64,000 nt of DNA, taken from the NCBI GenBank assembly GCA_001781125.1, contig MFKT01000001.1:3630-67629 (forward strand), given 5' to 3'. Shown here in pieces: positions 9,893 through 53,717 of the stretch. Origin of the DNA: Candidatus Kaiserbacteria bacterium RIFCSPHIGHO2_01_FULL_53_29 (GTDB lineage Bacteria; Patescibacteriota; Minisyncoccia; Phycocordibacterales; UBA2100). A program made the position numbers and the translations under genes. The notes under the pieces are model-generated. The model worked only from the letters and a program-made list of their open reading frames with translations. It made no database searches and was not told the origin of the DNA. Position 1 is the first letter of the stretch. Each line of letters begins with the position of its first letter.

Positions 9893-9897
9893 ATATG

Positions 9898-10029
9898 CCC
9901 GGCAGGACAATTTCGAATTGCTTCTTATGAATAATCATCAGCGTATGACAGAAAACATCTATCTATCAGATTGCAAAGTATTCGCAGTTGAAACTGCAGC
10001 AGGAATTATTCGAAATTGTACTAGCCGGG
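9898..10029 (+). mobile_element. 132-bp start-codon element, copy 1 (rplW-rplB)
   Basis: cccggcaggacaatttcgaat ... attcgaaattgtactagccggg, flanked by TATG on both sides; mini-ORFs 9895-9930 and 9927-10034. Confidence 0.9.
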
Positions 10030-10030
10030 T

Positions 10031-10873
10031 ATGAAAACATACAAACCAACATCGAAGTCCCAGCGTCAGCACACGAGCATTGAGTACCGCAAGCTTCTTT
10101 CGGGGCACAAGCCGGAGAAATCCCTTATGAAAGGTCGCCGCAGCTTCGGCGGGCGCAACTCATTTGGCCGAATCACGGTGCGCCATCAGGGCGGTGGGCA
10201 CAAGAAGACGTATCGGCAGGTGGATTTCAAATTCAATAAGAAAAATATCCCCGCGAAGGTCACTTCCATCGAGTACGACCCGTTCCGCTCCGGCTTCATC
10301 GGACTTGCCGTATATGCCGACGGGGAGAAGCGCTATTGTCTCGTGCCGCAGAAGGTGAAAGTGGGTGACACATTTCTTGTTTCCGAGAATGCTCCCGTAA
10401 CGCTCGCCAACCGATTGCCGCTGGGGAATATGCCAGTGGGAACATTCGTATACAACATCGAATTGAAGCCGGGCGAGGGCGCTGTCATCGCGCGTTCCGC
10501 GGGGAATTACTGCGAAGTCGTGGCACAAGATGCGGGCTACACGCACATCAAAATGCCCTCGACAGAAATACGCCGCGTCATCTCGACCGCGTGGGCGTCG
10601 GTGGGTGAAGTGTCCAACGAAGAGCATCGCTTGGTGAATCTCGGCAAAGCTGGCCGTAGCCGATGGCTAGGGCGTCGGCCGACTGTTCGCGGTACGGCAA
10701 TGAACCCGGTGGATCACCCGCACGGCGGAGGCGAAGGCAAGCAAGGTCGTGGTTCCCGCCGCCAGAAGACCATGTGGGGCAAACCTTCAGGCAAGGGCCA
10801 AAAGACGAGGCGGCCCAAGAAATATTCCAACGTCTTTATCGTCTCCCGCCGCAAAGTCGGGAAGAGGAAGTAA
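10031..10873 (+). CDS. rplB: 50S ribosomal protein L2
   Basis: GRITVRHQGGG, VRGTAMNPVDHPHGGGEG. Confidence 0.98.
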   Translation: MKTYKPTSKSQRQHTSIEYRKLLSGHKPEKSLMKGRRSFGGRNSFGRITVRHQGGGHKKTYRQVDFKFNKKNIPAKVTSIEYDPFRSGFIGLAVYADGEKRYCLVPQKVKVGDTFLVSENAPVTLANRLPLGNMPVGTFVYNIELKPGEGAVIARSAGNYCEVVAQDAGYTHIKMPSTEIRRVISTAWASVGEVSNEEHRLVNLGKAGRSRWLGRRPTVRGTAMNPVDHPHGGGEGKQGRGSRRQKTMWGKPSGKGQKTRRPKKYSNVFIVSRRKVGKRK

Positions 10874-10893
10874 ATTGTGCTGGCGTTGCGGTA

Positions 10894-10926
10894 TTGACAC
10901 GAATACGCCTGTAGATACAATGTATC
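10894..10926 (+). promoter_or_regulatory. Promoter and operator of mazEF
   Basis: TTGACA-N16-TACAAT-N6-ATG; palindrome gataca-a-tgtatc over the -10. Confidence 0.7.
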
Positions 10927-10927
10927 A

Positions 10928-11176
10928 ATGGCAACAAAAGTCCAAAAATGGGGGAATAGTCTCGCAGTCAGGATCCCCGACAATGTCGTTGAAGATGCCG
11001 GACTTGTTCCAGGAAAAGAAGTAACCGTCAGAAACGTCCGCAATACGGTCGTTATCACTCCGGTGAACGCAAAAAGGCGCCCGACACTCGAAGAACTCGT
11101 CGCTCGCATAACTCCCGAGAATCGGCACGACTATCAGTGGGGGGGAGTCGAGCCCGTTGGGAAGGAAATATGGTGA
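10928..11176 (+). CDS. mazE: AbrB/MazE family antitoxin
   Basis: KVQKWGNSLAVRIP ... TLEELVARITPENRH ... VGKEIW. Confidence 0.93.
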   Translation: MATKVQKWGNSLAVRIPDNVVEDAGLVPGKEVTVRNVRNTVVITPVNAKRRPTLEELVARITPENRHDYQWGGVEPVGKEIW

Positions 11177-11523
11177 AGGAAGGGTCACCACGCTATGTGC
11201 CAAATCGTGGAGATATTATATGGATCCAATTTTCACAGCGCAGAGGGCATGAGCAGGGTGGGCGAAGGCCAGCCATCATTCTTTCCTCGAAACAGTTCAG
11301 CGAACGTACTTCTTTTATATTCTGCTGTCCGATTACTTCAAAGGTGAAAGGATACGTTTTTGAAGTTCCCATAGCGGCCGGCCGAATACGAGGTGCGGTA
11401 CTTGCTGATCAAGCCTACACGTTTGACTGGCAGGCTCGTCGCCCAACATACGCGGCCCGCGCACCCGAAGCGGTCGTATCAAAGGTGGGTGAGTTGATCT
11501 CGATCCTCGCCCAAGGCGCATAG
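11170..11523 (+). CDS. mazF: MazF/PemK endoribonuclease toxin
   Basis: RGDIIW, GHEQGGRRPAIILS, CPITS; overlaps the mazE stop. Confidence 0.93.
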   Translation: MVKEGSPRYVPNRGDIIWIQFSQRRGHEQGGRRPAIILSSKQFSERTSFIFCCPITSKVKGYVFEVPIAAGRIRGAVLADQAYTFDWQARRPTYAARAPEAVVSKVGELISILAQGA

Positions 11524-11558
11524 TCCCACTTTCTAAGCCAAACCTACAGGCAAAAGAT

Positions 11559-11587
11559 TTGACTTATCAAGTCATTTCCTATACATT
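11559..11587 (+). promoter_or_regulatory. Internal promoter upstream of rpsS
   Basis: TTGACT-N17-TACATT followed by hairpin cccgc-gaag-gcggg. Confidence 0.55.
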
Positions 11588-11631
11588 ATGCGGACTCCCG
11601 CGAAGGCGGGTTTAATTTTGACTTGTATTCA

Positions 11632-11666
11632 CTAACACCTAGAACCTAGTCCCTAGCACCTAGTTC
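11632..11666 (+). repeat. 5 x 7-nt CTA-N4 array before rpsS
   Basis: ctaacac ctagaac ctagtcc ctagcac ctagttc at ATG. Confidence 0.85.
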
Positions 11667-11668
11667 AT

Positions 11669-12016
11669 ATGACACGCTCGCTCAAAAAAGGTCCCTACGT
11701 GGACGCGAAGTTGATGAAGAAAGTATCTCTGCGTAAAGCCACGCAGGGGTCTATTAAGACGTGGGCGCGCAGCTCGCAGATCGCACCGGAATTCGTCGGC
11801 TACACGTTTGCGGTGCACAACGGCAAAAGCTTCGAAGAGGTATATGTCTCCGAAGACATGGTCGGGCACCGGTTGGGTGAATTCTCACCGACGACCAAAT
11901 TCATCAAGCACGGCGGAAAGATGCAGAAAGAGACCGAGATGGCGGCCAAGGCCGCGGAAATCGCAGCGGCAACAGCAGCCAAGGCGACTACCACGACGAC
12001 CGCCGCAAAGAAATAA
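11669..12016 (+). CDS. rpsS: 30S ribosomal protein S19 with Ala/Thr C-terminal tail
   Basis: [22 protein letters not shown]. Confidence 0.97.
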
Positions 12017-12022
12017 TCTATG

Positions 12023-12154
12023 CCCGGCAGGACAATTTCGAATTGCTCACTATGAAAACTCACGAAACTACATCAAACGGAATAACCAAAGTGGTTTTAC
12101 TTACGGCCGTTGTTGAAACCTCGCAGGGAATTATTCGAAATTGTACTAGCCGGG
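12023..12154 (+). mobile_element. 132-bp start-codon element, copy 2 (rpsS-rplV)
   Basis: Same terminal repeats, TATG flanks; mini-ORFs 12020-12055 and 12052-12159. Confidence 0.9.
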
Positions 12155-12155
12155 T

Positions 12156-12599
12156 ATGAAAGCCACACTTACCAACTATCATCAGTCGCCGCGCAAGGTG
12201 GGGCTTGTTGCGAGTCTCATTCGCGGCAAGAGTGTTGTTGCTGCGCGCGCCGCATTGCTCTACTTGCCCAAAAAATCCTCGCCCGCGATCGGCAAGCTTC
12301 TGGACAGCGCCATTGCCAACGCCAACCGCGTAGGAGCGACGGCAGAAGATCTTTTTGTAAAGACGATTACGGTCAACAAGGGCGCCATCATGCGCCGGGC
12401 CAGGCCCTTTGCCCGTGGCCGCTCCGGCTCTATTAGGAAGACGATGAGCATTGTGTTCCTCGAACTCGGCCCTATCTCCGCCAAGGCTTCGAAGGGTAAG
12501 CACGCACCGAAAGCAGCGAATGTCAAAACTTCCAAAAAGTCCAACCGCAAGACAGGAAGTTCGAAGAAATCAAAGAAAGAACTAGTCCCTAGCACCTAG
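12156..12599 (+). CDS. rplV: 50S ribosomal protein L22 with Lys-rich tail
   Basis: SPRKVGLVASLIRGK, SAIANA, PFARGR. Confidence 0.96.
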   Translation: MKATLTNYHQSPRKVGLVASLIRGKSVVAARAALLYLPKKSSPAIGKLLDSAIANANRVGATAEDLFVKTITVNKGAIMRRARPFARGRSGSIRKTMSIVFLELGPISAKASKGKHAPKAANVKTSKKSNRKTGSSKKSKKELVPST

Positions 12600-12616
12600 T
12601 CCCTAGCACCTATTTA
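12582..12616 (+). repeat. 5 x 7-nt CTA-N4 array supplying the rplV stop, before rpsC
   Basis: ctagtcc ctagcac ctagtcc ctagcac ctattta t ATG. Confidence 0.85.
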
Positions 12617-12617
12617 T

Positions 12618-13319
12618 ATGACCCACACCGTACATCCATACGCCCACCGCCTCGGCATCATCCGCGACTGGAAATCGCGCTGGTTCTCCAAATCACCGGC
12701 GAAATATCGCGAGAACGTCTGTGTGGATGCCGCCATCCGCCGCTTCCTCAAGAAGCGCTTGCGGGGCAATTACGTTACCTCTGTCGAGATCGAGCGCAAC
12801 GAAAAGGCGATCCGCTGTCTGATCAGGACGTCGCGTCCGGGACTTGTCATCGGTCGTGGCGGGGAAGGCTCGACCAAGCTCACCAAGGAAATCGAGAAGG
12901 TCATCCGCACCGTGCCGCCCGCCAGAGGCGGGTCCTCCTTCGGAGGAAAAGCCTCCCCTCTCTCTGTGCGGCTCGATATCGAAGAGGTTCGCTCGCCGGA
13001 ATCACAATCACCGGTCGTCGCCTACATGGTCGCCGAAGGATTGGAAAAGCGACAGACGTTCCGCCGCGTCCTGAAACAGACGGTGGAGAAAGTGATGGCG
13101 AATCGTGATGTCCAAGGGGTGCGCATCGCCATCGCCGGCCGCCTCGGGGGAGCAGAGATGTCCCGCACCGAAGAGATCAAGCGCGGTCGCGTGCCTCTGC
13201 AGACTCTGCGCGCCGATATCGATTTTGCGCGCGAGACTGCGTATCTCCCGTATGGCGTTATCGGCATCAAAGTCTGGATCTACCGCGGCGACATCTTTGA
13301 TAAAGACGCAAAGAAGTAA
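12618..13319 (+). CDS. rpsC: 30S ribosomal protein S3
   Basis: RLGIIRDWKSRWF, GRVPLQTLRADID, YGVIGIKVWIY. Confidence 0.98.
   Translation: MTHTVHPYAHRLGIIRDWKSRWFSKSPAKYRENVCVDAAIRRFLKKRLRGNYVTSVEIERNEKAIRCLIRTSRPGLVIGRGGEGSTKLTKEIEKVIRTVPPARGGSSFGGKASPLSVRLDIEEVRSPESQSPVVAYMVAEGLEKRQTFRRVLKQTVEKVMANRDVQGVRIAIAGRLGGAEMSRTEEIKRGRVPLQTLRADIDFARETAYLPYGVIGIKVWIYRGDIFDKDAKK
12918..12950 (+). repeat. 33-nt in-frame double-hairpin insertion in rpsC
   Basis: cccgccagaggcggg tcctccttcggagga aaa (PARGGSSFGGK); sister copy at 49670-49702. Confidence 0.75.
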
Positions 13320-13334
13320 TTGCATTTGAATTTA

Positions 13335-13369
13335 CTATTCCCTAGCACCTATTCCCTAAAACCTAACTC
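13335..13369 (+). repeat. 5 x 7-nt CTA-N4 array before rplP
   Basis: ctattcc ctagcac ctattcc ctaaaac ctaactc ttt ATG. Confidence 0.85.
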
Positions 13370-13372
13370 TTT

Positions 13373-13795
13373 ATGTTGGCACCGAAAAAAGCGAAATACC
13401 GCAAATGGCAAACGGGCCGCAGGCGCGGAGCGCGTCTGGTGAAGCCGGAGACCCGGGGCATCACGGTCGCATTTGGCCAATTTGGATTGAAAGCGCTCAC
13501 ACAAGCACGCGTCACGTCCAATCAACTTGAAGCCGCGCGTCGCGCGCTTTCGCGCGCAGGCGGGAAATCCGCCAAGATCTGGACACGCATCTTTCCCGAC
13601 AGGCCGTTCACGCAAAAGGCTGCCGAAGTGGGCATGGGAAGCGGTAAGGGCGATGTCGCGGGTTACGTGTTCGAAGTGCGTCCGGGCCGGATTCTCTTCG
13701 AGATCGATGGCGCACCAGAGCAACAGGCCCGCGAGGCACTCCGCAAAGCTGGCACAAAATTGCCGCTCAAGGCTCGTGTCGTCGGGCGCGATTAG
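13373..13795 (+). CDS. rplP: 50S ribosomal protein L16
   Basis: MLAPKKAKYRK, RIFPDRP, MGSGKG, TKLP. Confidence 0.97.
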   Translation: MLAPKKAKYRKWQTGRRRGARLVKPETRGITVAFGQFGLKALTQARVTSNQLEAARRALSRAGGKSAKIWTRIFPDRPFTQKAAEVGMGSGKGDVAGYVFEVRPGRILFEIDGAPEQQAREALRKAGTKLPLKARVVGRD

Positions 13796-13825
13796 TTCGA
13801 CCACCGCATCACTCTAAATAAATTT

Positions 13826-14014
13826 ATGGATGATTTTTCAAAACAAGACATTGCGGAATTGCAGAAGCTCGTCGCTGACAAGCGCGAAGCATTGCGCGTA
13901 TTCCGATTTGGGGCAGAGGGTAGCCGCTCGCGCAATGTGCGCGAAGGGCGGACATTGCGCAAAGATATCGCACGCTTGCTCACTGAAGTCAGGAAGCGTA
14001 GTATCGCACAATAA
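13826..14014 (+). CDS. rpmC: 50S ribosomal protein L29
   Basis: LRKDIARLLT; operon position. Confidence 0.93.
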   Translation: MDDFSKQDIAELQKLVADKREALRVFRFGAEGSRSRNVREGRTLRKDIARLLTEVRKRSIAQ

Positions 14015-14016
14015 GT

Positions 14017-14292
14017 ATGGACGAAACTGAACAAAATGTTGGTAAAACGTTCGATGGCGTTGTCGTAAAGACGGCGATGAAAGACACGGCAAGCGTGCTG
14101 GTGGAACGCTATGTGAAGCATCCGAAATACAAAAAGTACATGCGCAAGAGTCAGAAGTTCCTCGTGCACGATCCGGGCAATACCGCTCAAGTCGGAGAGG
14201 AAGTTGTCATTCGCGAAACCCGTCCGATCTCCAAGCGCAAGCGCTTCATCCTCGTCTCCCGTATTTCCCCTTCGCTACAAGCTACAAGCTAA
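14017..14292 (+). CDS. rpsQ: 30S ribosomal protein S17
   Basis: GVVV..MKDT, HPKYKK, ETRPISKRKRF. Confidence 0.96.
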   Translation: MDETEQNVGKTFDGVVVKTAMKDTASVLVERYVKHPKYKKYMRKSQKFLVHDPGNTAQVGEEVVIRETRPISKRKRFILVSRISPSLQATS

Positions 14293-14309
14293 CGGCTACA
14301 AGCTTTTTC
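14275..14309 (+). repeat. 7-nt CTACAAG array supplying the rpsQ stop, before rplN
   Basis: ctacaag ctacaag ctaacgg ctacaag ctttttc ttt ATG. Confidence 0.8.
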
Positions 14310-14312
14310 TTT

Positions 14313-14693
14313 ATGATCCAAGACAGAACCCTTGTGAAAATTGCAGACAATTCCGGCGGCATCATCGGCCGGGTCTTCAAGATATTGGGCGGCTCGAAGC
14401 GCCGCTACGCTGGTATCGGCGACGAGATCGTCATCTCCATCCAGACCGCGCAGCCACGCAAATCGGTGAAGAAGAAAGAAGTGCACCGCGCCGTCGTCGT
14501 GCGTCAGACCAAAGCCTTTCGGCGGGCCGACGGCTCATACGTGCGTTTTGATGAAAATGCCGTCGTTCTTATCGCCGGATCGGGCAAAGAGCCCAGGGAG
14601 CCGAAAGCCAATCGTGTCTTCGGTCCTATCCCGCGTGAGGTCGTTGAGCGCGGATATCAGCGCATCGGCTCGCTCGCGCCGGAGATTGTATAA
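14313..14693 (+). CDS. rplN: 50S ribosomal protein L14
   Basis: MIQ...ADNSG, FDENAVV, SLAPEIV. Confidence 0.97.
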   Translation: MIQDRTLVKIADNSGGIIGRVFKILGGSKRRYAGIGDEIVISIQTAQPRKSVKKKEVHRAVVVRQTKAFRRADGSYVRFDENAVVLIAGSGKEPREPKANRVFGPIPREVVERGYQRIGSLAPEIV

Positions 14694-14700
14694 ATGTATG

Positions 14701-14832
14701 CCCGGCAGGACAATTTCGAATTGCCTTATATGAATATTCACCAGCGTATGAAAGAAAAACTAACTAACGGGCTTTGCAAAGTGTTCGCAGTTGAAACTGC
14801 GGCAGGAATTATTCGAAATTGTACTAGCCGGG
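14701..14832 (+). mobile_element. 132-bp start-codon element, copy 3 (rplN-rplX)
   Basis: Same terminal repeats, TATG flanks; mini-ORFs 14698-14733 and 14730-14837. Confidence 0.9.
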
Positions 14833-14833
14833 T

Positions 14834-15145
14834 ATGAAATTGAAAAAAGGAGATAAAGTGCTGGTAATAGCGGGGAAAAATAAGGGTCAAAGCGGTGCCA
14901 TTGTCCGGGTCCTGACGTCCCAAAACAAGGTGCTCCTCGACGGCATCAATCTTGTGAAGCGCCACCGCAAGCCATCCGCACAGAACCGCAAGGGCCAGAT
15001 CGTCGACAAGCCGATGCCCATTCATGCGTCCAATGTAATGCTTGCCGACCCAAAGACAGGGAAGCCGACACGTATCAAGATCGTGCGCGGCAAGGATGGC
15101 GAGCGCCAGCGCGTCGCCGTTAAAAGCGGACAGGAACTGAATTAA
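14834..15145 (+). CDS. rplX: 50S ribosomal protein L24
   Basis: KKGDKVLVIAGKNKG, PIHASNV. Confidence 0.97.
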   Translation: MKLKKGDKVLVIAGKNKGQSGAIVRVLTSQNKVLLDGINLVKRHRKPSAQNRKGQIVDKPMPIHASNVMLADPKTGKPTRIKIVRGKDGERQRVAVKSGQELN

Positions 15146-15146
15146 T

Positions 15147-15686
15147 ATGGCTACTGCAACTCCACAGATGAGAACGTTCGAGGCCCTGAAGAATGAGCTC
15201 GGCTATAAAAATGTCATGCAAGCGCCGCGCGTGCAGAAGATTGTCGTCTCGACCGGCGTCGGCAAGACCAACAAAGACAAGAAGCGCCTTGAGTTGGTGC
15301 GAGACAGACTCTCAAGGATCACCGGACAGGCCGCAGCCCCGCGCGCCGCCAAGAAAGCGATTGCCAATTTCAAGAGCCGCGCGGGAGACACGGTGGGCTA
15401 TCAGGTAACACTTCGAGGTGCTCGGCAGCAGGCATTTCTGAACAAGCTCATCCACATCGTCTTTCCGCGGGGCAAAGACTTCCGCGGCATCAAGCTTTCG
15501 GCGATTGATGAAATGGGCAACATTTCCATCGGGCTCAAAGAGCACACGGTATTTCCCGAGACTTCCGATGAGGATGCCAAAGACATTTTCGGTCTTGCCA
15601 TCACCATCGTGACGAGCGCCAAGAACAAAAAAGAAGCAGAAGCCTTTTTGCGTCACCTCGGTTTGCCTCTCCAGGAGGCGAAATAA
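15147..15686 (+). CDS. rplE: 50S ribosomal protein L5
   Basis: ITGQ...AKKAIANFK, KDFRG, EHTVFPE. Confidence 0.97.
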   Translation: MATATPQMRTFEALKNELGYKNVMQAPRVQKIVVSTGVGKTNKDKKRLELVRDRLSRITGQAAAPRAAKKAIANFKSRAGDTVGYQVTLRGARQQAFLNKLIHIVFPRGKDFRGIKLSAIDEMGNISIGLKEHTVFPETSDEDAKDIFGLAITIVTSAKNKKEAEAFLRHLGLPLQEAK

Positions 15687-15956
15687 TCAGCTCCCGAAGA
15701 GTTGATGATGCGTGCCCACGGCGCGCAAATAGAATGTCTGTGCATCGAGCTTTTTGTATACCAGCCGCCAATCCCCGGTAATATTGATGCTGGAATAACC
15801 ATCGAACGGGTGATGCAACTTGTGGTCGTTGAGCAGAGGATTGCGTTCGTCAGTAATCAACAACTCGATGCGCTTCCACAGCTTGTCCTGCACCCCTAGC
15901 GATAGCTTTTTCGCCTGCCGTTCGAACTCCCGGTGTGTTGGAAATCGCATGGACAC
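15687..15956 (-). CDS. RelE/YafQ-family mRNA interferase toxin
   Basis: LNDHKLH, SINITGDWRLVY, VGTHHQL. Confidence 0.88.
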   Translation of the reverse strand: MSMRFPTHREFERQAKKLSLGVQDKLWKRIELLITDERNPLLNDHKLHHPFDGYSSINITGDWRLVYKKLDAQTFYLRAVGTHHQLFGS

Positions 15957-16228
15957 TATTTCTCAATCGCCGCCCTCAATTCCTCAAGACTATTGTAGGT
16001 TTTTATATTGCGTCCAGTTTTGAGATCTTTCTCGCCCTGTATGAGCAACCGCTTCAAATACGGCGTCGGTTCGTACTCTTGAGCAGAGAAGGTGATTTGT
16101 TCCCGATTAACGATCTCCTTCAGCATCTGATTCATTACAGCGGAAAAGGGGATACCCATTTTCTTCGCCATTTTTTGTGTAGCTTCTTTCAGTTTCTTGT
16201 CTGTCTTGAAAATGACTGTAGTTTGCAT
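15956..16228 (-). CDS. RelB/DinJ-like antitoxin
   Basis: KTDKKLKE..A..MGIPFSAV (RHH fold); TATACT-N7-ATG at 16228; overlaps the toxin start. Confidence 0.85.
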   Translation of the reverse strand: MQTTVIFKTDKKLKEATQKMAKKMGIPFSAVMNQMLKEIVNREQITFSAQEYEPTPYLKRLLIQGEKDLKTGRNIKTYNSLEELRAAIEK

Positions 16229-16353
16229 ATACTGTAGTATATATTCTAGTATAAACCTGTCAAGCAAACAGGGAGGCGAGGCCTCCCTGTAAACTAAACC
16301 TGTATCAACAGGTTGTCGTGTCGAATCCCGATTGTTCCGGTATACTTTTAACT

Positions 16354-16710: not shown

Positions 16711-16714
16711 TTTG

Positions 16715-17566: not shown

Positions 17567-17576
17567 AGAAGATGTT

Positions 17577-17765: not shown

Positions 17766-17767
17766 CC

Positions 17768-18316: not shown

Positions 18317-18345
18317 TTCGACGTTGCTCACTATAAACAAAATAT

Positions 18346-21685: not shown

Positions 21686-21782
21686 CCCCGTTAGAAAAAC
21701 GTTTTCAGGAATGTTGGCCAAAATAGTTTCTATGTGCAATACGAACGTTACTTTGATATGACAGATACATTTTCTAATGGGG
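21686..21782 (+). mobile_element. 97-bp CCCGTTAGA-family element at the adk start
   Basis: ccccgttagaaaa ... ttttctaatgggg, flanked by TGAA on both sides; mini-ORF 21681-21761. Confidence 0.8.
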
Positions 21783-31829: not shown

Positions 31830-31855
31830 AAATTACTTGTAGTGAGCTAGTCGAA

Positions 31856-34938: not shown

Positions 34939-35059
34939 CCCGTTAGAGGTAGGAAGCTTGCGCTTCCGACGCGAGTATAAACTTTTGTGAGTAGAGTTTC
35001 ATCTGTTGCAAATGTATCATCCGCATACTACTACGAAACTTCCGTAACCTCTAACGGGA
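34938..35059 (-). mobile_element. 122-bp CCCGTTAGA-family element at the infC start
   Basis: Perfect 13-bp inverted repeat tcccgttagaggt/acctctaacggga; TGGG (minus strand) duplicated; mini-ORFs 35064-35017 and 35020-34943. Confidence 0.8.
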
Positions 35060-43932: not shown

Positions 43933-44041
43933 AAACAAAACAAAGCCAGAAAAACTCTGTCCTGTCGATCTTTATAGAACCTTTATTCCGTAATGCTGCG
44001 CAAAACAGAATATGGAAGAACGTGAATAACATGTACTTATG

Positions 44042-44430
44042 TGGAGATGGCGAGAATTGCACTCGCGTCCAGAGAAGAGAATATGAACGATTCTACACAA
44101 CGTAGATTATTCTGAATTTTCGTCGCGGTGCATCAAGAACAATCAAAAGTGCATCGCGCTTACCTCTCTTTCTTGAAAGCAGTGCGCGGAGTGACGCAGA
44201 GCTCGAGTCAATTGATTATGGCGTTCGAATCAGAGCAAATGACAACTGCTGATTGAACGGTCGTTCGAGCTGTTTAGGCAAAAACGAGGCCGAGGTCTTT
44301 CGCCTGAATCGGAGAAAGAACCCCCCGTGCTACTTTGTTCGCACTTGAGTTTTGAGGCAGTTTAAAAAGATGCCACAACTTTGTTGCGCACAGACATATT
44401 CCTATTTCCCTGTCGAAACTGATCATCCCC
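44042..44430 (-). ncRNA. ssrA: tmRNA
   Basis: 5' GGGGATGATCAGTTTCGAC and 3' GGACGCGAGTGCAATTCTCGCCATCTCCA with a G3.U pair; tag ORF 44342-44274 ANKVARGVLSPIQAKDLGLVFA*; adjacent to smpB. Confidence 0.92.
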
Positions 44431-45811: not shown

Positions 45812-47743
45812 ATGGCAAACTCTAGGAAAGAAGCGTCCCGCAAGCCACGCGGGGGAGGTGAGCCAGCTGGCGCGGGGGGCCCTTCTATCTGGATACAGCT
45901 CGCGGCGGCATTCGCGGTATTTCTCGTGCTCTCCACCGGCTATTCGCTGGTGCGGCAATACTTCCTCGATAAAAGCGAAGAGGTGCCACTTTCCCAGATC
46001 GCAGTCGACATTAGTGCAGGAACGGTGGTCTCGATAGAAGTATCAGGGGACAAAATTACTGCCGTCTATACGGACGAAACGAAAAAGACGTCGCGCAAAG
46101 AAACGGAATCAGCACTTTTGCAGACCCTCTCGGATTATTCCATCGAGCCTGAAAAATTGGCTAGGGTGGTGATCGAGATAAAAGATGAGGGGGGGTTGCG
46201 TTTCTGGGCGCTCACACTTTTGCCCATCCTCGTGCCGGTCGTATTTCTTTTTGGCGTCATCTGGTACCTCTCGCGGCAGCTGCGTGGCGGCGGCATGCAG
46301 GCATTTAGCTTCGGTAAATCGATGGCGCGGCTCGTGAATCCGGAAGATGAGGTGCAGAAAGTAACATTTAAAGATGTGGCAGGAGCGAAGGAAGCAAAAA
46401 GCGAACTCCTTGAGATAGTCGACTTCTTGAAAAATCCCAAGAAATTCATCCAGATCGGCGCGCGCATTCCAAAAGGCGTACTTCTTATGGGTGCGCCGGG
46501 TACGGGCAAGACATTGCTTGCACGCGCTGTTGCGGGTGAAGCAGGCGTACCGTTCTTTTCCATCTCCGGCTCTGAATTCGTCGAGATGTTCGTCGGGGTG
46601 GGGGCATCCCGTGTGCGTGATCTTTTCCAAACTGCGAAGAAAGCCGCACCCGCCATCGTTTTCATCGATGAGATAGACGCGGTTGGGCGCGTGCGCGGCA
46701 CGGGAGTGGGCGGAGGCAATGACGAGCGTGAACAGACACTCAATCAGATCCTCGTCGAGATGGACGGCTTCGAGCCGAATGAAAAAGTCATCGTGATGGC
46801 GGCGAGCAACAGACCCGACGTGCTCGATCCCGCGCTCTTGCGCCCGGGCCGATTCGATAGGCGCGTTACCATCGATTTGCCCGACCGCAAAGACCGTGAA
46901 GAGATACTCAAAGTCCACGCGCGCTCAAAGCCGCTCGGCCCCGACGTAAACCTCATCGTCATTGCTGAACGCACGCCGGGATTCTCCGGTGCAGATCTCG
47001 CAAGCCTCATGAACGAAGGCGCCATCCTCGCCGCGCGCGAGGATAGGAAGGAACTCACGCAGTACGACCTTATCCGCTCCATCGAGAAGGTCATGCTCGG
47101 ACCCGAGCGAAGGTCGCACGTGTTGAACAAAAAAGAAAAAGAGATAACCGCGTACCACGAGGCCGGCCACGCACTCATTGCGTCGGTTTTGCCGTACGCT
47201 GATCCGGTGCACAAAATTTCCATCATTAGCCGCGGACGTGCTGCGGGCTACACGCTTAAGCTGCCCTTTGAGGATCGCCGCATGCAGTCGCGCAAAGAAT
47301 TTTTGGACGATATTGCGGTTTCCCTCGGCGGCTATATCGCCGAGAAATTGGTATTCGATGACATCACGACGGGCGCCTCGAATGATCTTCAGGTATTGAC
47401 CGCGCTCGCTCGCAATATGGTCGCCCGTTATGGCATGTCGGAAAAAATGGGTCCGATCGCGTTTGCCACCTCGGCCCAGCGCACCATCTTCGGCGAGGGG
47501 GTCGAGGGAGAACAATCGCAGGAAGTTGCGTCACAGCTCGATGAGGAAGTGAAGAAAATAATCTCCGGCGCACACAAGATCGCTCTCGGCGTCATCACCA
47601 AACACCGCAAAGCGCTCGACGCGATCGCGAGCCGGTTGGTAGTGGTGGAAACCATCGAACGCGAGGAATTTGAGAACATCCTTATCGCCAACGGCATAAC
47701 TCCCAAAAAGAAAGAGGATATAGAACATCAACCACTGGTATAG
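45812..47743 (+). CDS. ftsH: ATP-dependent zinc metalloprotease FtsH
   Basis: [20 protein letters not shown]. Confidence 0.98.
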
Positions 47744-47823
47744 GTGTCAGCTGTCAGGTTTCAGCTATCAGCAAAATCGTGCAAAATATTTTCTGAAATC
47801 TGAAAGCTAGCACCTGAAAGCTA
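47744..47823. repeat. Inverted pair of 7-nt arrays between the convergent ftsH and pyrC stops
   Basis: gtgtcag ctgtcag gtttcag ctatcag ... ctgaaat ctgaaag ctagcac ctgaaag cta. Confidence 0.7.
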
Positions 47824-48891
47824 TTTTTTGATTTGCCAGTGTATCGTCTCGTTGCCAAGCCCCATGTCTTTGTGGTAGATGGGCCATACTTTCACACCTT
47901 CGTCGGTGACGACCGGCTCTGTGACCTGCCAATCTTTTTTCACGAGCGTTATTGTTTCGCTGCTCGGCTCGAGTCCGAAGAATCGTGGACCGTTCACTGA
48001 CAAAAAGTTCTCGAGCTTATCGAGGCACCCCAGTTCATCAAATACTTGCGTATAGAGTTCAACCGCAACCGGCGCGCTGAAAATGCCGAACGCCGCGGTC
48101 GTCGCGAATTTCTTGGATTCGGGATGCGGGGCCGAATCACTTCCCGCGGATACGAAAGGCAGTCCTTTTTTAACGAGCGCTCGGATCTTATCCCTATTCG
48201 ATCTTTCTTTTATCAGAGGTTTTACCCGAAGGAGGGGACGAGGCTCGGCATCGCCGCGATCGTACAAGAGATGGTGCACCGTTATGGTCGCGACGAGTCT
48301 TCCTTCCTTTCCGTTCTTCTCTATAAAATCCACCGCTTCCGCCGAACTCGCATGTTCGAGCGATACCTTGAGCTTGGGGTACGAGGTGAGAAGTTCCGGC
48401 AGAATACCTTTAATGAACGTTTGCTCTCCGCGATACGGGTCTACTTCCTCGTTGCGTTCGTCCACATGCACTTCACCGTGGAGGAGCAGGGGAAGGCCGA
48501 CCCCTTCCATCTTTTTAAGCACGTCTTTCGCCTCCAAAATATTCTGGTAGCCCCACTGCGAGTTCGTCGTCGCGCCCCATGGATAGTACTTGACGCCGTA
48601 GACGCCGCTCCCGGCTGCTTTTTCGATCTCTGCAGGCGTAAGGTTTTTCGTAAGATAGAGAGTCATCAGTGGCTCAAACCGAGAGGCGTCGCCTCTCGGT
48701 ATAGCAGCAAGAATTTCTTTTTTGTACTCCGCAGCTTGTTCGACGGTCTCTATCGGCGGGTCGGTATTGGGCATCACGATGGCACGAGAGAATTTCTCTG
48801 CCGTTATCGGCGTCACCGCTCGCAACATAGCTCCGCGCCGCAGGTGCACGTGGGCATCGAAGGGTTTTTTGAGGGTTATTGTGTCAATCAT
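47821..48891 (-). CDS. pyrC: Dihydroorotase (homodimeric type)
   Basis: DAHVHLR, AIVMPN, KYYP.GATTNS, GSDSAPH. Confidence 0.94.
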   Translation of the reverse strand: MIDTITLKKPFDAHVHLRRGAMLRAVTPITAEKFSRAIVMPNTDPPIETVEQAAEYKKEILAAIPRGDASRFEPLMTLYLTKNLTPAEIEKAAGSGVYGVKYYPWGATTNSQWGYQNILEAKDVLKKMEGVGLPLLLHGEVHVDERNEEVDPYRGEQTFIKGILPELLTSYPKLKVSLEHASSAEAVDFIEKNGKEGRLVATITVHHLLYDRGDAEPRPLLRVKPLIKERSNRDKIRALVKKGLPFVSAGSDSAPHPESKKFATTAAFGIFSAPVAVELYTQVFDELGCLDKLENFLSVNGPRFFGLEPSSETITLVKKDWQVTEPVVTDEGVKVWPIYHKDMGLGNETIHWQIKK

Positions 48892-48916
48892 CCAAGAAGT
48901 ATACACTGGCGGCAAT

Positions 48917-50080
48917 ATGGCAAAAAAAGATGTTGCAAAACAGGCGCTGGCGCTCCACAAGAAGCTTGGGGGGAAGATACGGATCGTGCCGGCGGCGCCT
49001 ATTACCAATCGCGCCGAGCTCTCCCTCGTGTATACGCCCGGTGTTGCTGCTGTTTCTTCATATGTTGCAAAACATCCAAAAGAGGCAAGGGTTTATACGA
49101 TGAAGGGTCGCAGCGTCGCGGTCATTTCCGACGGTTCCGCTGTACTCGGCCTCGGCAACATCGGCGCGCTTGGCGCGCTTCCGGTGATGGAAGGGAAGGC
49201 TGCGATTTTTAAAACATTTGCAGATATCGATACGGTGCCGATCGTTCTTGATACACAAGACCCTGATGAAATTGTAAAAACGGTCATCGCTATCGCGCCG
49301 GCCTTCGGCGGCATCAATCTCGAAGACATCGCCGCGCCGAAGTGTTTTGAGATAGAACGCCGCGTTATCGAAGCACTTGATATTCCGGTGATGCACGACG
49401 ACCAGCACGGGACCGCGATCGTGGTACTTGCTGGCATCATCAATGCGCTCAAAGTCGTCAAAAAGAAATTATCGTCAGCTCGCGTCGTTATCCTCGGAGC
49501 TGGAGCTGCGGGTACGGCGACCGCAAGACTTCTCAGGGCGGCCGGAGCAAAAAACATCATCGTTCTTGATAGCAAGGGGATCGTTAATCGCTCAAGACCC
49601 GAGCCGCACAAAAGAGAACTCGCGAAGTTCAATACAAAGGGTGTCAAAGGTGGATTGCGAGAAGCGCTCTCCGCCGGAGGCGGATCCTCCTCCGGAGGAA
49701 AAGGTGCCGATGTGCTTCTTGGTGTCTCCGGCCCCAATCTTGTAAGGGCGGAAGACATACGGCTGATGGCGAAGAAGGCAATCGTCTTTGCGATGGCGAA
49801 TCCGACTCCCGAGATCATGCCTGACGAAGCGAAAAAGGGCGGAGCCATGGTGGTGGGCACCGGACGCTCGGATTTCCCGAATCAGGTAAATAATTCACTC
49901 GCGTTCCCCGGCGTTTTCCGCGGCGCCTTGGATCATGGTGTGACGAAGATAACCGACGCGATGAAATTGAAGGCGGCACGCGCGATAGCCGCACTCGTGA
50001 AAAAGCCGACAGCCAACAAAGTCATTCCCGACATGTTCGACAAACGCGCTCCCATCGCCGTGGCTAGAGCAATACGCTAA
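48917..50080 (+). CDS. NAD(P)-dependent malic enzyme
   Basis: YTPGVA, VLGLGNIG, PVMEGK, HDDQHGTA, TGRSDFPNQVNN. Confidence 0.95.
   Translation: MAKKDVAKQALALHKKLGGKIRIVPAAPITNRAELSLVYTPGVAAVSSYVAKHPKEARVYTMKGRSVAVISDGSAVLGLGNIGALGALPVMEGKAAIFKTFADIDTVPIVLDTQDPDEIVKTVIAIAPAFGGINLEDIAAPKCFEIERRVIEALDIPVMHDDQHGTAIVVLAGIINALKVVKKKLSSARVVILGAGAAGTATARLLRAAGAKNIIVLDSKGIVNRSRPEPHKRELAKFNTKGVKGGLREALSAGGGSSSGGKGADVLLGVSGPNLVRAEDIRLMAKKAIVFAMANPTPEIMPDEAKKGGAMVVGTGRSDFPNQVNNSLAFPGVFRGALDHGVTKITDAMKLKAARAIAALVKKPTANKVIPDMFDKRAPIAVARAIR
49670..49702 (+). repeat. 33-nt in-frame double-hairpin insertion in the malic enzyme gene
   Basis: tccgccggaggcgga tcctcctccggagga aaa (SAGGGSSSGGK). Confidence 0.75.
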
Positions 50081-50233
50081 GGGACATGAATGAGCCTGTT
50101 CGAGTTGTCATAACCGGAGGGACCGGCGTATACGTTGCCATGAATGGAAAGGTATTCCTCTGGAACAATGTCAGGAAGAATAGAGATAAGCAAGTGTTTG
50201 AAAACTTGCAAAAGACGGTAGAGTAGTACTGTT

Positions 50234-50304
50234 GCGCCCATAGCTCAATGGTAGAGCGACCGTCTTATACACGGTCTACCTAGGTTCGATTCCTAGTGGG
50301 CGTA
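50234..50304 (+). tRNA. tRNA-Ile(UAU)
   Basis: Full cloverleaf GCGCCCA-TA-GCTC..GAGC-G-ACCGT-CTTATAC-ACGGT-CTAC-CTAGG-TTCGATT-CCTAG-TGGGCGT-A; anticodon TAT at 50266-50268; CCA not encoded. Confidence 0.9.
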
Positions 50305-50367
50305 TAAGTGAACTTTGCTGTGAATTGCGAGGTTGCACCCTCGGCTCGCCGTGCGACAATGAGTGGC

Positions 50368-52701
50368 ATGCGATACGTTGTTCGGATTCCTGCGCTAGCT
50401 GCATGTCTAGCCGCTTTTCTCTTTCTCTTCCTCCCTCATGCAAGCTTTGCGGCGACTGTCACGGTAACGATGGGGGCAAATTCTTTCTCGCCCAAAAATA
50501 TCACGGTCAATTCCGGCGACACGGTCACGTGGGTCAACAGCAGCAGCATGGCGCACACTGCAACGGCCGACAACGGCAGCTTCGATAGCGGAACGGTGGC
50601 TGCGGGACAGAGCTACGGAGCGATATTCAATGCACCCGGCATCTACGCGTATTATTGCAAACTCCACGGTAGCCCCGGTGGGATAAGTATGGCAGGTACT
50701 ATTACGGTTGTCGCGGGCGCAACCCCGACGAGCGGAGCTGTCGGGGCCCCACCCAGTGCGTCGGGGCTGCAGGCGCAAGCACAGGCACTCCTCAATCAAA
50801 TTGCGGCACTCAAGCAACAGCTGGGATATGGTGGCACTTCGGGAACCGCGATCACGACGACTTCAGGGAGCGGCATCTCCACGTATTCGGCCGCGTGTCC
50901 GCTCATCGGGAGGAATCTCTCACAGGGCGCGAGCGGTGACGATGTGTCGCGTCTCCAGCAATTTCTCGCGCAGGACACTGCGGTCTATCCGGAGGCGATC
51001 GTGTCGGGATATTATGGAAGTTTGACTCAGACGGCAGTGCAGCGATGGCAGGCGAAGTACAATATCGTCTCGTCAGGTACGCCAAGCTCGACCGGCTACG
51101 GTGTCGTCGGTCCGCGCACGGCGGCAGCGATCGCTATCATTTGTGCCGGCGGCAGCATCAATGGCATCTCCGCAACGGCAGTGAGCCCGCCTCCTGCATC
51201 TGTCAGCGGTGTTGTCAGCGTGACACCGATCGTGGGGGACGCACCCCTTACGGTCAATGTTACCGCGACACTCAATACGGCCGGCTCATGCGCCGGCGGC
51301 CTTTACACACTCGATTTTGGCGATGGCGCTCCTGTGCAGCAAATTACTGTTCCGGCTGGTAATTGTGGACAATTGAGTCAGACCTATCCGCATACGTTCC
51401 GATACGGTGGCAGTTACTCCATCACTCTTTCGGCAGGAGTGCACCGTCAATCCGCGACAGTCACCGTCACCGGTCCTGCAGCGCCTCCGCCGCGGAAAAC
51501 AACGCCCGGTCTGCCGAAAGAATCTTTCAAGGTCTCTCCTACCTCGGGTACAACACCGCTTACCGTTACGTTCTCGGGCGTCGTCAACAGCAACGATGCG
51601 GGATTCTGTAACGGCGGTTGTGCCTCTGTTCTCGACTTTGGCGATGGCACGTCCGGGACGGTCGATCTTCCCGCCTCTGTCGGGGGATGGCTTGAGTACA
51701 GCATCACGCATACCTATACGACGGCGGGGGGATTCAAGACGACTCTGTATCAGGGCGGTGCGGGCGTCTCACAGCCGAAGGTCGGGTCGGCAACGATCGT
51801 TGTCTCGGTCGGCACCCCGTCGTTTTCTGCGATACCCGCATCCGGTCCCTCGCCACTTGCTGTCGGCTTTTCTGCGACTGGTCTTTCTCCAAGCGGCCTC
51901 TACGGGATCAATTATGCCGATGGAACGGCCATTGCGCGCTTCACGGGAAGCGCCGCTCCCGGCACGCAAAGCCCGTGGACGCATACCTACTCGACTCCTG
52001 GCACATTCTCGGCCCAACTTCTCTCGTATCAGGCGTCCACGAGTGGCTGCCAAGGCAGTTGTGCCTCGACCCCGACGGTCATAGGCACGGTACCGGTCAA
52101 TGTTTCCGGCACCCCCGCCGGCTCTGCCGCGCTCTCGGTATATCCGACCTCCGGCGTGGCGCCAGTCAACGTTTCATTCACGGCGAATATCAGCCCGACA
52201 AGCGGCACGCACAGCATTAATTTTGGCGATGGCTCTCCGGCGCAAACCTTCGGCTGCGCGACCGGCTCAACGTGTGCCACGCACTGGCAGATCAATCACA
52301 CGTACGCGACGGGCGGCACATTTGTGGCGCGGCTCAGCACGGGATCGGGCTCTCAAGTCGGGGCGGCCACGGTTACCGTTTCCGGCGGTTCGACGAATCC
52401 GACGAATCCCACAAATCCTCCAAATTCTTATCCGTACAATCCGCCCCTGCTCTCCGGTGGCAGTGACTCGCTTTCATTCAATGTGCAGTTTGACCTGCCA
52501 TCCTCGTGCACGGGCTACGATCTCTCTTGGGGCGATGGCACGTCTCATGTCGTGCAGAGTGACGGAGGCTCCTCGTGTGCGCAGAGTATTGCTACTCCAT
52601 CTCTTTCTCACACGTATAGTTCCGAGGGCTCATACACCATCGTTTTGAAACGTGGACCGACGCTTTCCCAGATCAACGACATCGAAATAACCACTCAATA
52701 A
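50368..52701 (+). CDS. Secreted cupredoxin + peptidoglycan-binding + multi-PKD protein
   Basis: HTATAD..YYCKLHG..M copper ligands; DVSRLQQFL..GYYG.LT..AV..WQ; repeated DFGDG..HTY. Confidence 0.9.
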   Translation: MRYVVRIPALAACLAAFLFLFLPHASFAATVTVTMGANSFSPKNITVNSGDTVTWVNSSSMAHTATADNGSFDSGTVAAGQSYGAIFNAPGIYAYYCKLHGSPGGISMAGTITVVAGATPTSGAVGAPPSASGLQAQAQALLNQIAALKQQLGYGGTSGTAITTTSGSGISTYSAACPLIGRNLSQGASGDDVSRLQQFLAQDTAVYPEAIVSGYYGSLTQTAVQRWQAKYNIVSSGTPSSTGYGVVGPRTAAAIAIICAGGSINGISATAVSPPPASVSGVVSVTPIVGDAPLTVNVTATLNTAGSCAGGLYTLDFGDGAPVQQITVPAGNCGQLSQTYPHTFRYGGSYSITLSAGVHRQSATVTVTGPAAPPPRKTTPGLPKESFKVSPTSGTTPLTVTFSGVVNSNDAGFCNGGCASVLDFGDGTSGTVDLPASVGGWLEYSITHTYTTAGGFKTTLYQGGAGVSQPKVGSATIVVSVGTPSFSAIPASGPSPLAVGFSATGLSPSGLYGINYADGTAIARFTGSAAPGTQSPWTHTYSTPGTFSAQLLSYQASTSGCQGSCASTPTVIGTVPVNVSGTPAGSAALSVYPTSGVAPVNVSFTANISPTSGTHSINFGDGSPAQTFGCATGSTCATHWQINHTYATGGTFVARLSTGSGSQVGAATVTVSGGSTNPTNPTNPPNSYPYNPPLLSGGSDSLSFNVQFDLPSSCTGYDLSWGDGTSHVVQSDGGSSCAQSIATPSLSHTYSSEGSYTIVLKRGPTLSQINDIEITTQ

Positions 52702-52731
52702 CGAGTATCAAATTTAGGCCCCGATGATATG

Positions 52732-52864
52732 CCCGGTAGGACAATTTCGAATCGCCTTGATATGAATATTTACCAGCGTATGACGAGAAAAATTGATTCG
52801 AGAATTTTGCAGCCATTCGTCGTTGATACCGCGGCAAGAATTATTCGAAATTGTACTGACCGGG
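52732..52864 (+). mobile_element. 133-bp start-codon element, copy 4
   Basis: cccggtaggacaatttcgaat ... attcgaaattgtactgaccggg, TATG flanks; one extra base fuses the mini-ORFs into a single 46-aa ORF 52729-52869. Confidence 0.88.
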
Positions 52865-52865
52865 T

Positions 52866-53717
52866 ATGAGAAAAATACGGTTCGCAGGAATTGCAACGCT
52901 GCTCGCAGGTATTTGTGCGACGCCATTCTTTGCGGCAGCTTTGAGCGGCGACGATATCAAGGCGCAGATTGCGGCAATCCTTGCTCAGATCGCTGCGACC
53001 CAGGGGAAAGCGCAGTCCGTACCATCTGTCCAGTCCGTCCAATCTCTTCCCCCCGTGCAGCCGCTTTCCCCGAACCAATCGCAGGGAGGGGCGTGTCCGG
53101 TACTTTCCCGCTCGCTCTCGCTTGGTGCACAGGGCCTGGATGTGCTCTCGCTCCAGCAATTCCTCATCGCGCAGAATTCCGCGAGTACCGGATCGGCGAC
53201 CGGCTACTTCAACGCGCAGACCGAAGTTGCCGTACAAAAATGGCAATCATCGCACGGGCTCGTCTCCTCCGGTGACGCGGGATCGACCGGATGGGGAGTG
53301 GTGGGTCCGCGCACAAGAATGCTCATTTCTCTCAATTGTAACCTTCCAACGTCATCTCCGGCGTCGGCTGTCACCGGAAGCCGGTGCCCGAGTGCGCTCC
53401 CGCCTGTGATGCTCTGCTCGACTACTTGGAAGCCGGTCTTGGACGTATACGGTTGTACCACTTCCTACCAATGCTCGGTCCCGCTTTCAGGCGCCACGTC
53501 ACAGAAATCGGTGCAATCAACGACGACAACACCGGCAACAGGCTCGGTCATATCGATCGGTATCCTCTCAAGCAGCTATTGTGTAACTCCGTGGGGCAAC
53601 ATTACGCGGGTTAACGGACAAAGTATCAGCTATATCCCGTATTTCACGAACGGACTAAATAACGGGGGACGCAATCCAAGTGTTTTATGCGACAAAGGCG
53701 TTTGGACGGTGCAGTGA
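52866..53717 (+). CDS. Secreted peptidoglycan-binding domain protein
   Basis: Signal peptide; DVLSLQQFL..TGYF..T..AV.KWQ..GVVGPRTR. Confidence 0.85.
   Translation: MRKIRFAGIATLLAGICATPFFAAALSGDDIKAQIAAILAQIAATQGKAQSVPSVQSVQSLPPVQPLSPNQSQGGACPVLSRSLSLGAQGLDVLSLQQFLIAQNSASTGSATGYFNAQTEVAVQKWQSSHGLVSSGDAGSTGWGVVGPRTRMLISLNCNLPTSSPASAVTGSRCPSALPPVMLCSTTWKPVLDVYGCTTSYQCSVPLSGATSQKSVQSTTTTPATGSVISIGILSSSYCVTPWGNITRVNGQSISYIPYFTNGLNNGGRNPSVLCDKGVWTVQ

Follow-up and report, generated by a model that had tools for sequence, protein, structure and literature searches.

Bacterial MITEs such as Correia, RUP and ERIC are short, multi-copy sequences that have inverted-repeat ends, duplicate their target and are co-transcribed with their neighbours; they have longer coding relatives with the same ends, in which the parent gene encodes a DDE transposase. 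UPF0213/Slx1-like GIY-YIG proteins are stand-alone or multidomain repair nucleases, and we know of no strand-joining activity for a lone GIY-YIG nuclease domain. Translational coupling is described for ATGA overlaps and is nearly abolished by gaps of about 20 nt (Huber et al. 2023, PMC10666635). Termination-reinitiation coupling is reportedly also the subject of a study by Huber et al. from 2019 (PMC6728339). As summarised in PMC12548453, MIRUs (Supply et al. 1997) are apparently mobile short repeats located at start codons, whose ORF has a -4 overlap that couples it with the host gene and limits the harm; the description given there names neither terminal inverted repeats nor a mobilising gene. 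The main text of PMC11893778 (Chenal et al. 2025) describes Ssn nucleases with NTS/SRM repeats, likens the arrangement NTS-ssnA-NTS to an insertion sequence and reports that the enzyme cuts single-stranded DNA a few nucleotides outside the repeat; transposition is only hypothesised there, and the terms "start codon" and "CPR" are absent from that text. In the literature searched, in which subscription papers were thinly covered, the element analysed here is undescribed, and MIRUs and Ssn nucleases are its nearest counterparts.

The window (the whole stretch of 64,000 nucleotides that was analysed) contains four copies of a short element, all on the forward strand, and a re-check of the sequence confirmed the coordinates, ends, TATG at both sides and peptides given for them in the initial annotation. 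Copy 1 (132 bp, positions 9898-10029) has imperfect terminal inverted repeats of 21/22 bp and lies between a left TATG (9894-9897), whose ATG (9895) marks where rplB originally began, 2 nt past the rplW stop, and a right TATG (10030-10033), which contains the regenerated rplB start codon. A first relay ORF of 11 codons (9895-9930), whose residues 1-8 are identical to the N-terminus of the parent nuclease described below, ends in a TGA that overlaps an internal ATG, and a second relay ORF of 35 codons (9927-10034) ends in a TGA that overlaps the rplB ATG at 10031. Copy 2 (132 bp, 12023-12154; flanks 12019-12022 and 12155-12158; relay ORFs 12020-12055 and 12052-12159) is located at the rpsS/rplV junction and copy 3 (132 bp, 14701-14832; flanks 14697-14700 and 14833-14836; relay ORFs 14698-14733 and 14730-14837) at the rplN/rplX junction. 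The host genes of copies 1-3 are rplB, rplV and rplX, and the left ATGs do lie 2, 3 and 4 nt past the rplW, rpsS and rplN stops. In copy 4 (133 bp, 52732-52864; flanks 52728-52731 and 52865-52868), the left ATG is 27 nt past the upstream stop, and both relay ORFs are fused, as had been noted, into a single ORF of 46 codons (52729-52869) that overlaps the host ATG at 52866, leaving the chain unbroken. Its host had been called a surface protein; the 283-aa product has a signal-peptide-like start, and its domain match is a weak one to SleB (E = 2e-4).

The interiors of the four window copies are 53-83% identical. At the Rfam gathering score the four copies remained unmatched, the only matches in the window being tmRNA and one tRNA. 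Full-identity matches to the ends or to the entire copy 1 occur in contigs from four public DNA runs, although such contigs would miss rare excision; two contigs in which copy 1 or copy 3 is skipped align at 85% likeness and probably come from relatives.

Among 187 copies, the flanks are identical 4-mers in 123, a 5-bp form in 12 and CATG/TATG in 35. Of the 39 CATG targets, 35 have acquired a T on the right-hand side, and the duplication often consists of the ATG plus a T contributed by the element. The 4-bp TATG duplication initially annotated describes the four window copies, but 9 of the 26 left flanks in the genome differ from TATG. Inheritance of the flank 4-mer with the element lineage was considered and found unsupported, TACA-type copies being interleaved with TATG copies in a poorly resolved tree, although one variant of the ends shows an excess of them (7/14). 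The family is absent from the rplW-rplB junction in all 29 relatives, and at the rpsS-rplV junction 4 of 21 resolved relatives read AAGAAA-TAA-TCT-ATGAA, matching the predicted pre-insertion site. The proposed search for empty sites in relatives was thus successful at both junctions, and because relatives have empty sites, the inserts are true insertions. Together with the placement described below, this supports the initial reading of a non-autonomous element that inserts at start codons.

A search for longer copies with the same ends had also been proposed; such copies were found, and they encode a GIY-YIG nuclease and no classical transposase. The source genome has one, of 303 bp, whose sole gene encodes a 93-aa GIY-YIG nuclease (PF01541, E = 5e-16) and is opened by the duplicated start codon. 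At least nine intact long copies were identified at nine different genes, eight of them in other genomes. The nuclease gene has a dN/dS of 0.14, and Y12, Y14, Y25, G27, R35 and E71 are invariant in 29 nuclease sequences. The best sequence matches were to UPF0213/Slx1-like GIY-YIG proteins (PDB 1zg2, 1ywl; E 4e-9, 1e-4), and the predicted model (pLDDT 82 from the alignment, 57 from the single sequence) gave fold matches to the UPF0213/Slx1 group, including Slx1 structures 7cq2 and 4xm5 (best E 0.001-0.006, none at or below 0.001); in the ESM Atlas only GIY-YIG clusters were matched. In contrast to UPF0213/Slx1 proteins, the nuclease is located inside a mobile cassette and borrows the start codon of its host. 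It resembles the Ssn enzymes (cd10448) as presented in PMC11893778, which are single-domain GIY-YIG proteins of about 94 aa encoded between cognate hairpin-forming repeats, in its 93 aa and intact catalytic residues; whereas the SRMs described there are self-contained hairpins of about 28 nt, in the present element the left end pairs with the right one. Two short patterns detected no dRS3/NTS-like motif around the long copy.

The 25 short copies in the source genome contain only ORFs of 11-47 codons and no mobilising enzyme. When their interiors were compared with the nuclease gene, gapped alignment gave a p of about 0.05 or less in 8 of 12 cases, and a 3'-anchored match p ≤ 0.03 in 8 of 9, the 5' block being significant in 2 of 9; these similarities suggest, no more, that the short interior derives from the nuclease gene. 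The family is like MITEs in its terminal inverted repeats, its target duplication with empty sites, its multiple copies, its lack of a mobilising enzyme of its own and its longer coding relative with matching ends, and differs from them in a GIY-YIG parent gene, a start-codon target, an often asymmetric duplication and internal frames under selection.

Among the alternatives, the one that fares best, although we judge it improbable, accepts the relay and treats the nuclease as cargo, perhaps an addiction or restriction factor, the ends being moved in trans by a Y1/RAYT-like HUH transposase, IS110, IS3/IS481 or a host recombinase. The joining chemistry that a lone GIY-YIG domain would need is, as far as we are aware, not known, the source genome has 14 Y1 (HUH), three rve integrase and one IS110 matches, and three of the six high-copy genomes (at least 10 copies) have no close nuclease match. 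However, the Y1 genes have unrelated palindromes of their own, whose best match to the element ends is 6.5-9 of 21, and no Y1, rve or IS110 gene matches the ends above background, the IS110 region being at random level. Unlike in REPIN/RAYT and IS200/IS605 systems, no HUH (Y1) transposase is linked to the repeat of the element. DDE_Tnp_1, IS1380, IS1595, IS630, IS256 and reverse transcriptase (PF00078) are all without a match in the source genome, and no same-ended partner with a recognised transposase was found: the long copies, at least nine, carry GIY-YIG genes only, and the transposases of the genome do not share the ends. Moreover, the long copies among the matches listed carry no other cargo (flanks of 1.2-1.5 kb), and 25 of the best 30 nuclease homologues lie inside inverted-repeat cassettes ending at ATG, whose ends vary by family; about eight end families are recognised, each bracketing a GIY-YIG gene.

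Copies were located by mismatch scans. The source genome has 26 intact copies, that is, the 25 short ones and the long one, all of which terminate on an ATG that opens an ORF of 72-958 aa; 25 of these ATGs were also called as starts independently by a crude caller. With 27 copies scored, 26 are at starts (p = 2e-4, the null being YATG sites that no long frame covers). In the set drawn from several genomes, ATG forms the end of 169 of the 187 short copies, counts in which related genomes are non-independent; since the search pattern fixed the right end, the conservation of that end outside the source genome is circular. The family was found in 40 of 116 genomes of the genus, and viral contigs gave no match to the right end of the element. 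One copy is inserted on the internal ATG of another, whose relay chain is still intact; such entry into a relay ATG is cited alongside the reading, discussed below, that the element finds start sites. A hypermutated centre was ruled out, identity being 0.51-0.88 in seven same-gene pairs and the synonymous-site difference of the hosts 0.61-0.79.

It is also conceivable, but in our opinion very unlikely, that there is no true targeting and that any YATG-like site can receive the element, which survives only on start codons, where copies would persist because partial deletion breaks the relay, while neutral copies erode. The copies are indeed old (mean interior identity 64%), one copy in the source genome is away from any start, and 18 of the 187 copies lack a T/C/A-ATG end, several of these lying within boxes that resemble a -10 element and precede a gene by about 12 nt. 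Nevertheless, the genome offers 348 or more YATG sites that no long frame covers, and only that single copy of 27 is off a start; the youngest lineage, three copies that are 96-98% alike, occupies three different start codons; and, apart from two left ends that have been domesticated, mismatch scans of the genome revealed no eroded fragments. Survivorship probably sharpens the start-codon pattern rather than creating it.

Since gaps of about 20 nt nearly abolish coupling, a 132-bp insert needs a relay. A full ATG-to-stop chain up to the host ATG is present in 115 of 139 host-gene clusters, far more than under three null models (means 97.6, 43 and 34; maxima 107, 56 and 50 in 1000, 300 and 200 runs), and in 106 of 139 when internal hand-offs are restricted to near-direct overlaps. 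This excess supports the earlier suggestion that the element may be tolerated through ribosome hand-over. The model fails in 24 of the 139 clusters, one of them in the source genome before an essential-looking aminotransferase. In the 115 completed relays, the exit is a -4 overlap in 37 and a TAG 6 nt upstream of the host ATG in 77, and exit frame is associated with the fourth base of the host (2 x 2 counts 34, 5 and 17, 51; p = 3e-10). The initial annotation regarded 35 codons as fixed and TATG(A) as the target. The 35 codons and an ATGA host start are present at all four window copies, but in the whole genome the internal-ATG ORF has 35 codons in 9 of the 25 short copies, 32 in 8 and another length in 3, the internal ATG being absent from 5, and 8 of 26 hosts begin otherwise. 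The 35-codon form with TGA overlap precedes ATGA hosts in 34 of 39 cases, and non-ATGA hosts have a 32-codon form that stops at a TAG 6 nt ahead of the host ATG; 35 codons with an ATGA target is one of two solutions and 32 codons with TAG is the second. The dN/dS of the relay frame is 0.43-0.53, against 0.95-1.18 in the remaining two frames. As judged from these sequence comparisons, selection maintains an unbroken chain of frames that starts at the left ATG and runs to a stop that either overlaps the host ATG or precedes it by 6 nt; which frame is used depends on the host's fourth base.

That the inserts are inherited vertically, either as regulatory leaders that have been domesticated or as small introns or bypass elements that are removed from RNA, is hardly credible: a strong predicted RNA stem over the AUG, certain sites common to several genomes and near-invariant ends would suit it, but presence in the genus is patchy, close relatives have empty sites, the 139 host genes are unrelated, and the tracking of the host's fourth base by the frames argues against RNA excision, as the frames of an excised RNA would not track it. 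Of a group I/II intron or retroelement there was no sign either, Rfam being without a match at the four copies and PF00078 without one in the genome.

The previously proposed RNA stem was reproduced by folding, in which the predicted stem spans both AUGs, with z-scores of -5.7, -3.9, -4.7 and -2.8 for copies 1-4. At pairs 6, 17 and 19 of the stem formed by the 21/22-bp terminal repeats, changes are compensatory, and the predicted unpaired probability of the host AUG is 0.14 with the element and 0.54 without it. Additionally, the genome has no Shine-Dalgarno enrichment at starts (SD-like words in 8.6% of starts and 9.6% of control windows).

The four inserts would thus be gene-less derivatives of a mobile element of about 300 bp, whose sole gene encodes a GIY-YIG nuclease of 93-99 aa. 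The element occupies and duplicates a host start codon, which is YATG in nearly all cases. Its left ATG retains the original initiation context of the gene and opens the nuclease gene in long copies, and the right ATG restarts the host gene. Pairing of the ends would lock the host AUG into a strong RNA stem, which a ribosome translating the relay would open before terminating beside the AUG and reinitiating there. More tentatively, the nuclease may recognise the ends of its element, probably folded into a hairpin in single-stranded DNA, and cut just outside them, the shared ATG being the junction, so that long and short copies might be mobilised by it together with host repair enzymes. We consider this explanation as a whole, from nuclease-coding parent to selected relay, stem opening and nuclease mobilisation, to be likely. 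The stronger proposal is put forward with somewhat less than even confidence: a new transposon class, in which a lone 93-aa GIY-YIG nuclease would act as the transposase of an element of about 300 bp that finds active translation start sites and not a DNA word alone, hijacks the initiation signal of the host for its own expression, and makes essential genes dependent on a relay with a frame tuned to each host. MIRUs, as described in PMC12548453, are alike in start-codon insertion, and the -4 overlap of their ORF with the host gene has a counterpart in the exit of 37 of the 115 completed relays; the 21-bp paired ends, the nuclease-coding parent, the two-step relay and the second exit (TAG 6 nt upstream, at non-ATGA genes) distinguish the present family. 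Termination-reinitiation coupling, known between native gene pairs, would here be rebuilt by a mobile element.

If the nuclease moves these elements, they would be among the smallest self-mobile DNAs, would have a transposase chemistry for which the literature searched holds no description, and would answer the suggestion, made in the main text of PMC11893778, that hairpin-flanked GIY-YIG genes are mobile. The inserts also produce false N-termini in the annotation of these genomes, and two secreted proteins of the source genome seem to owe their N-terminus to the element. Independently of how it is mobilised, the family offers a natural experiment in the coupling of translation, with 139 insertion clusters, in which the accepted exits would be the ATGA overlap and the TAG 6 nt upstream, with the frame matched to one base of the host.

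Four copies of a short, gene-less element with paired ends lie in the window at 9898-10029, 12023-12154 and 14701-14832 (132 bp each) and at 52732-52864 (133 bp), and re-examination of the sequence confirmed the positions, ends, TATG flanks and peptides given in the initial annotation. The hosts are rplB, rplV, rplX and, for the fourth copy, a gene for a 283-aa protein that is probably exported. Rfam gave no match at the four copies; the same type of search placed a tmRNA at 44039-44430 (-) and a tRNA at 50234-50304 (+). In each copy a long terminal stem takes in both AUGs (folding z -2.8 to -5.7). Three features described as shared, namely TATG flanks, ATGA host starts and exactly 35 codons, hold for the window copies and do not extend to the whole family: left flanks in the genome are TATG (17), CATG (6) or ATGA (3), 8 of 26 hosts begin otherwise than ATGA, and across the family the ORF opened by the internal ATG mostly has 32 codons (64 copies) or 35 (42). 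The constant length in the window arises because all four hosts there start with ATGA.

In the source assembly (1.11 Mb) both ends are present in 26 copies, of which 25 are short and one measures 303 bp; a further, diverged copy lies off any start, and two left ends stand alone. All 26 right-hand ATGs begin an ORF of 72-958 aa, and 25 of these host starts were independently picked by a crude gene caller blind to the elements. Copies are at starts more often (26 of 27) than neutral placement would give (p=2e-4), the alternatives being limited to the 348 YATG sites that fall in no long frame. Exact-pattern scans located the right end in 95 stretches of GTDB, the majority carrying the label Ca. 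Kaiserbacteria, and in at least 119 metagenome stretches, with no matches in viral contigs; 40 of the 116 genomes of the genus contain it. We regard real targeting of start sites, rather than survival alone, as quite probable. Six non-ATG copies (L039, L071, L085, L099, L106 and L124) share one end variant and lie in -10-like boxes (TACAAT, TACACT, TATACT), which they duplicate; since the host ATG is 12-13 nt downstream in five of them, these copies may rebuild promoters of leaderless genes. In the source genome (G000), the proteins at L003 (G000:C22:9043, -) and L004 (G000:C9:31126, -) have N-termini derived from the element left end/nuclease N-terminus, an apparent domestication, fused to a signal-peptide-like stretch, and are probably secreted.

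The rplW-rplB and rpsS-rplV junctions were compared in the 29 closest relatives by rplB. The family is absent from rplW-rplB in all 29, of which 27 have a spacer of 1-33 nt and two an unrelated or sister insert. A sister element occupies one of the 21 resolved rpsS-rplV junctions and the other 20 are without an element of this kind; four match the predicted empty site exactly. At these two sites the junctions speak strongly against a vertically inherited leader and bear out the proposed insertion. The family is also present at the rplB, rplV and rplX starts in other genomes, and these are therefore recurrent sites. Flanking 4-mers are identical in 123 of 187 non-redundant short copies (107 TATG; the remainder TACA, CATG, TACG and six singletons), and 12 of the 187 have a 5-bp duplication form. 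A left CATG is paired with a right TATG in 35 of 39 copies. Conversion between copies is an alternative source of this right-hand T; its supply by the element is suggested by one CATG/TATG copy that shares 98% identity with a copy at a different gene. L123 contains a nested pair, in which one copy has inserted at the other's internal ATG without breaking the frame chain to the host. The family is real and mobile. At the ftsZ start, G000:C16:29006-29144 and L097 represent the same insertion with interiors that remain related (78%) and end variants that differ between genomes, a hint that the ends may have been converted in place. In relatives, other inverted-repeat families take the same ribosomal-protein starts (L251 and L258 at rplB, L275 at rplV), and a short repeat starting TTCGAC follows TAG stops in ribosomal operons (L253, L254, L255, L256, L257, L265, L275) and occurs once in the window, at 31855 (-).

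The 303-bp copy (L001:2997-3299) encodes a 93-aa GIY-YIG protein opened by the left ATG (PF01541, E 5e-16). Because the left end encodes the first residues of this nuclease, the 11-aa ORF seen in short copies represents a stump of the nuclease gene. Nine long copies lie at nine different host genes, all with an intact nuclease frame; dN/dS is 0.14 (55 pairs, 11 sequences), the catalytic-motif residues are unchanged across 29 homologues, and the nearest relatives of the nuclease model (pLDDT 82) are UPF0213 and Slx1. Of the best 30 matches in the genus, some of them redundant, 25 lie inside inverted-repeat cassettes that finish at an ATG and form about eight families, each with ends of its own. 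Three of the six genomes with at least ten copies have no close nuclease match, which counts against a simple parent-nuclease picture. Two further small GIY-YIG genes (G000:C9:465 and G000:C27:3275) lie between tRNA-like sequences, not inverted repeats.

The genome has 14 Y1, 3 rve and 1 IS110 matches, none of which shares the element ends, and profile searches found no DDE_Tnp_1, IS1380, IS1595, IS630, IS256 or reverse transcriptase. The Y1 (RAYT-like) matches, on contigs C5, C6, C8, C9, C11, C13, C15, C16, C21, C23 and C25, mostly have REP-like palindromes of their own on both sides. A sister family distinguished by its ends, CCCGTTAGA...TCTAACGGG, has roughly 50 copies in the genome (by eye), three of them in the window at 8742-8836 (+), 21687-21781 (+) and 34939-35058 (-); many appear to end at GTG, not ATG, and a 275-bp long copy (G000:C9:113108) has its own GIY-YIG gene.

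Compensatory changes at three stem pairs of the element ends indicate that their pairing matters. According to PMC11893778, the GIY-YIG protein SsnA (94 aa) cleaves ssDNA a few nt beyond its cognate hairpin repeat; the authors likened the arrangement of gene and repeats to an insertion sequence. We propose a similar route here: the nuclease would cut ssDNA just outside the element's ends, and host repair would finish insertion at the shared ATG. Mobilisation by the GIY-YIG nuclease is likely, if slightly less so than real targeting of start sites. The element resembles Ssn systems but showed no NTS-type repeats around the long copy with the two short patterns searched, and behaves as a MITE although its long parent has no recognised transposase. 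In the literature we searched, no GIY-YIG element is described that occupies start codons, and the family is apparently undescribed.

The relay, a chain of small ORFs from the left ATG through the internal ATG to a stop beside the host ATG, was modelled in 169 short copies ending on ATG, reduced to one for each of 139 host-gene clusters (18 non-ATG copies were left out). In the model, translation began at the left ATG, or at the internal ATG where the left was lost, and after each stop it resumed at an ATG no more than 12 nt away; success was a final stop adjoining the host ATG. The relay is complete in 115 of the 139 clusters, in 24 of 25 short copies of the source genome and in 8 of 9 long copies. 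Against the 115 observed, shuffled centres gave a mean of 43 (maximum 56 of 300 runs), column-resampled elements 34 (50 of 200) and swapped host flanks 97.6 (107 of 1000). With the tightest restart window, 106 relays are complete (nulls 35 and 90); the internal hand-off uses an ATGA overlap in 54 of 64 cases. Two kinds of exit occur: in 37 relays a TGA overlaps the start of an ATGA host, and in 77 the chain ends at the right-end TAG, 6 nt ahead of the ATG. The internal-ATG frame tracks the fourth base of the host, the TGA-overlap frame standing before ATGA in 34 of 39 cases and the other frames in 17 of 68 (p=3e-10), and centre stops before non-ATGA hosts number 13 in the usable frame versus 42 and 104 in the other two. 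With dN/dS at 0.43-0.53 for the relay frame and about 1 for the two others (pairs not independent), this frame looks translated, though under only weak constraint as a peptide. Selection on the relay is strongly supported by these sequence statistics.

The host AUG has a predicted unpaired probability of 0.54 at rebuilt empty sites versus 0.14 with the element, returning to 0.50 when the left arm is removed. Since Shine-Dalgarno-like words are not enriched in the genome (8.6% vs 9.6%), initiation should depend on open structure. Coupling is almost lost at gaps of about 20 nt, according to Huber et al. (PMC10666635). The only precedent found in print for the relay lifestyle is that of the MIRUs, as summarised in a review (PMC12548453). 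We infer that the relay is needed because the stem hides the host AUG: a ribosome would initiate at the left ATG in its native context and, while translating, would open the element's stem and arrive at the host start.
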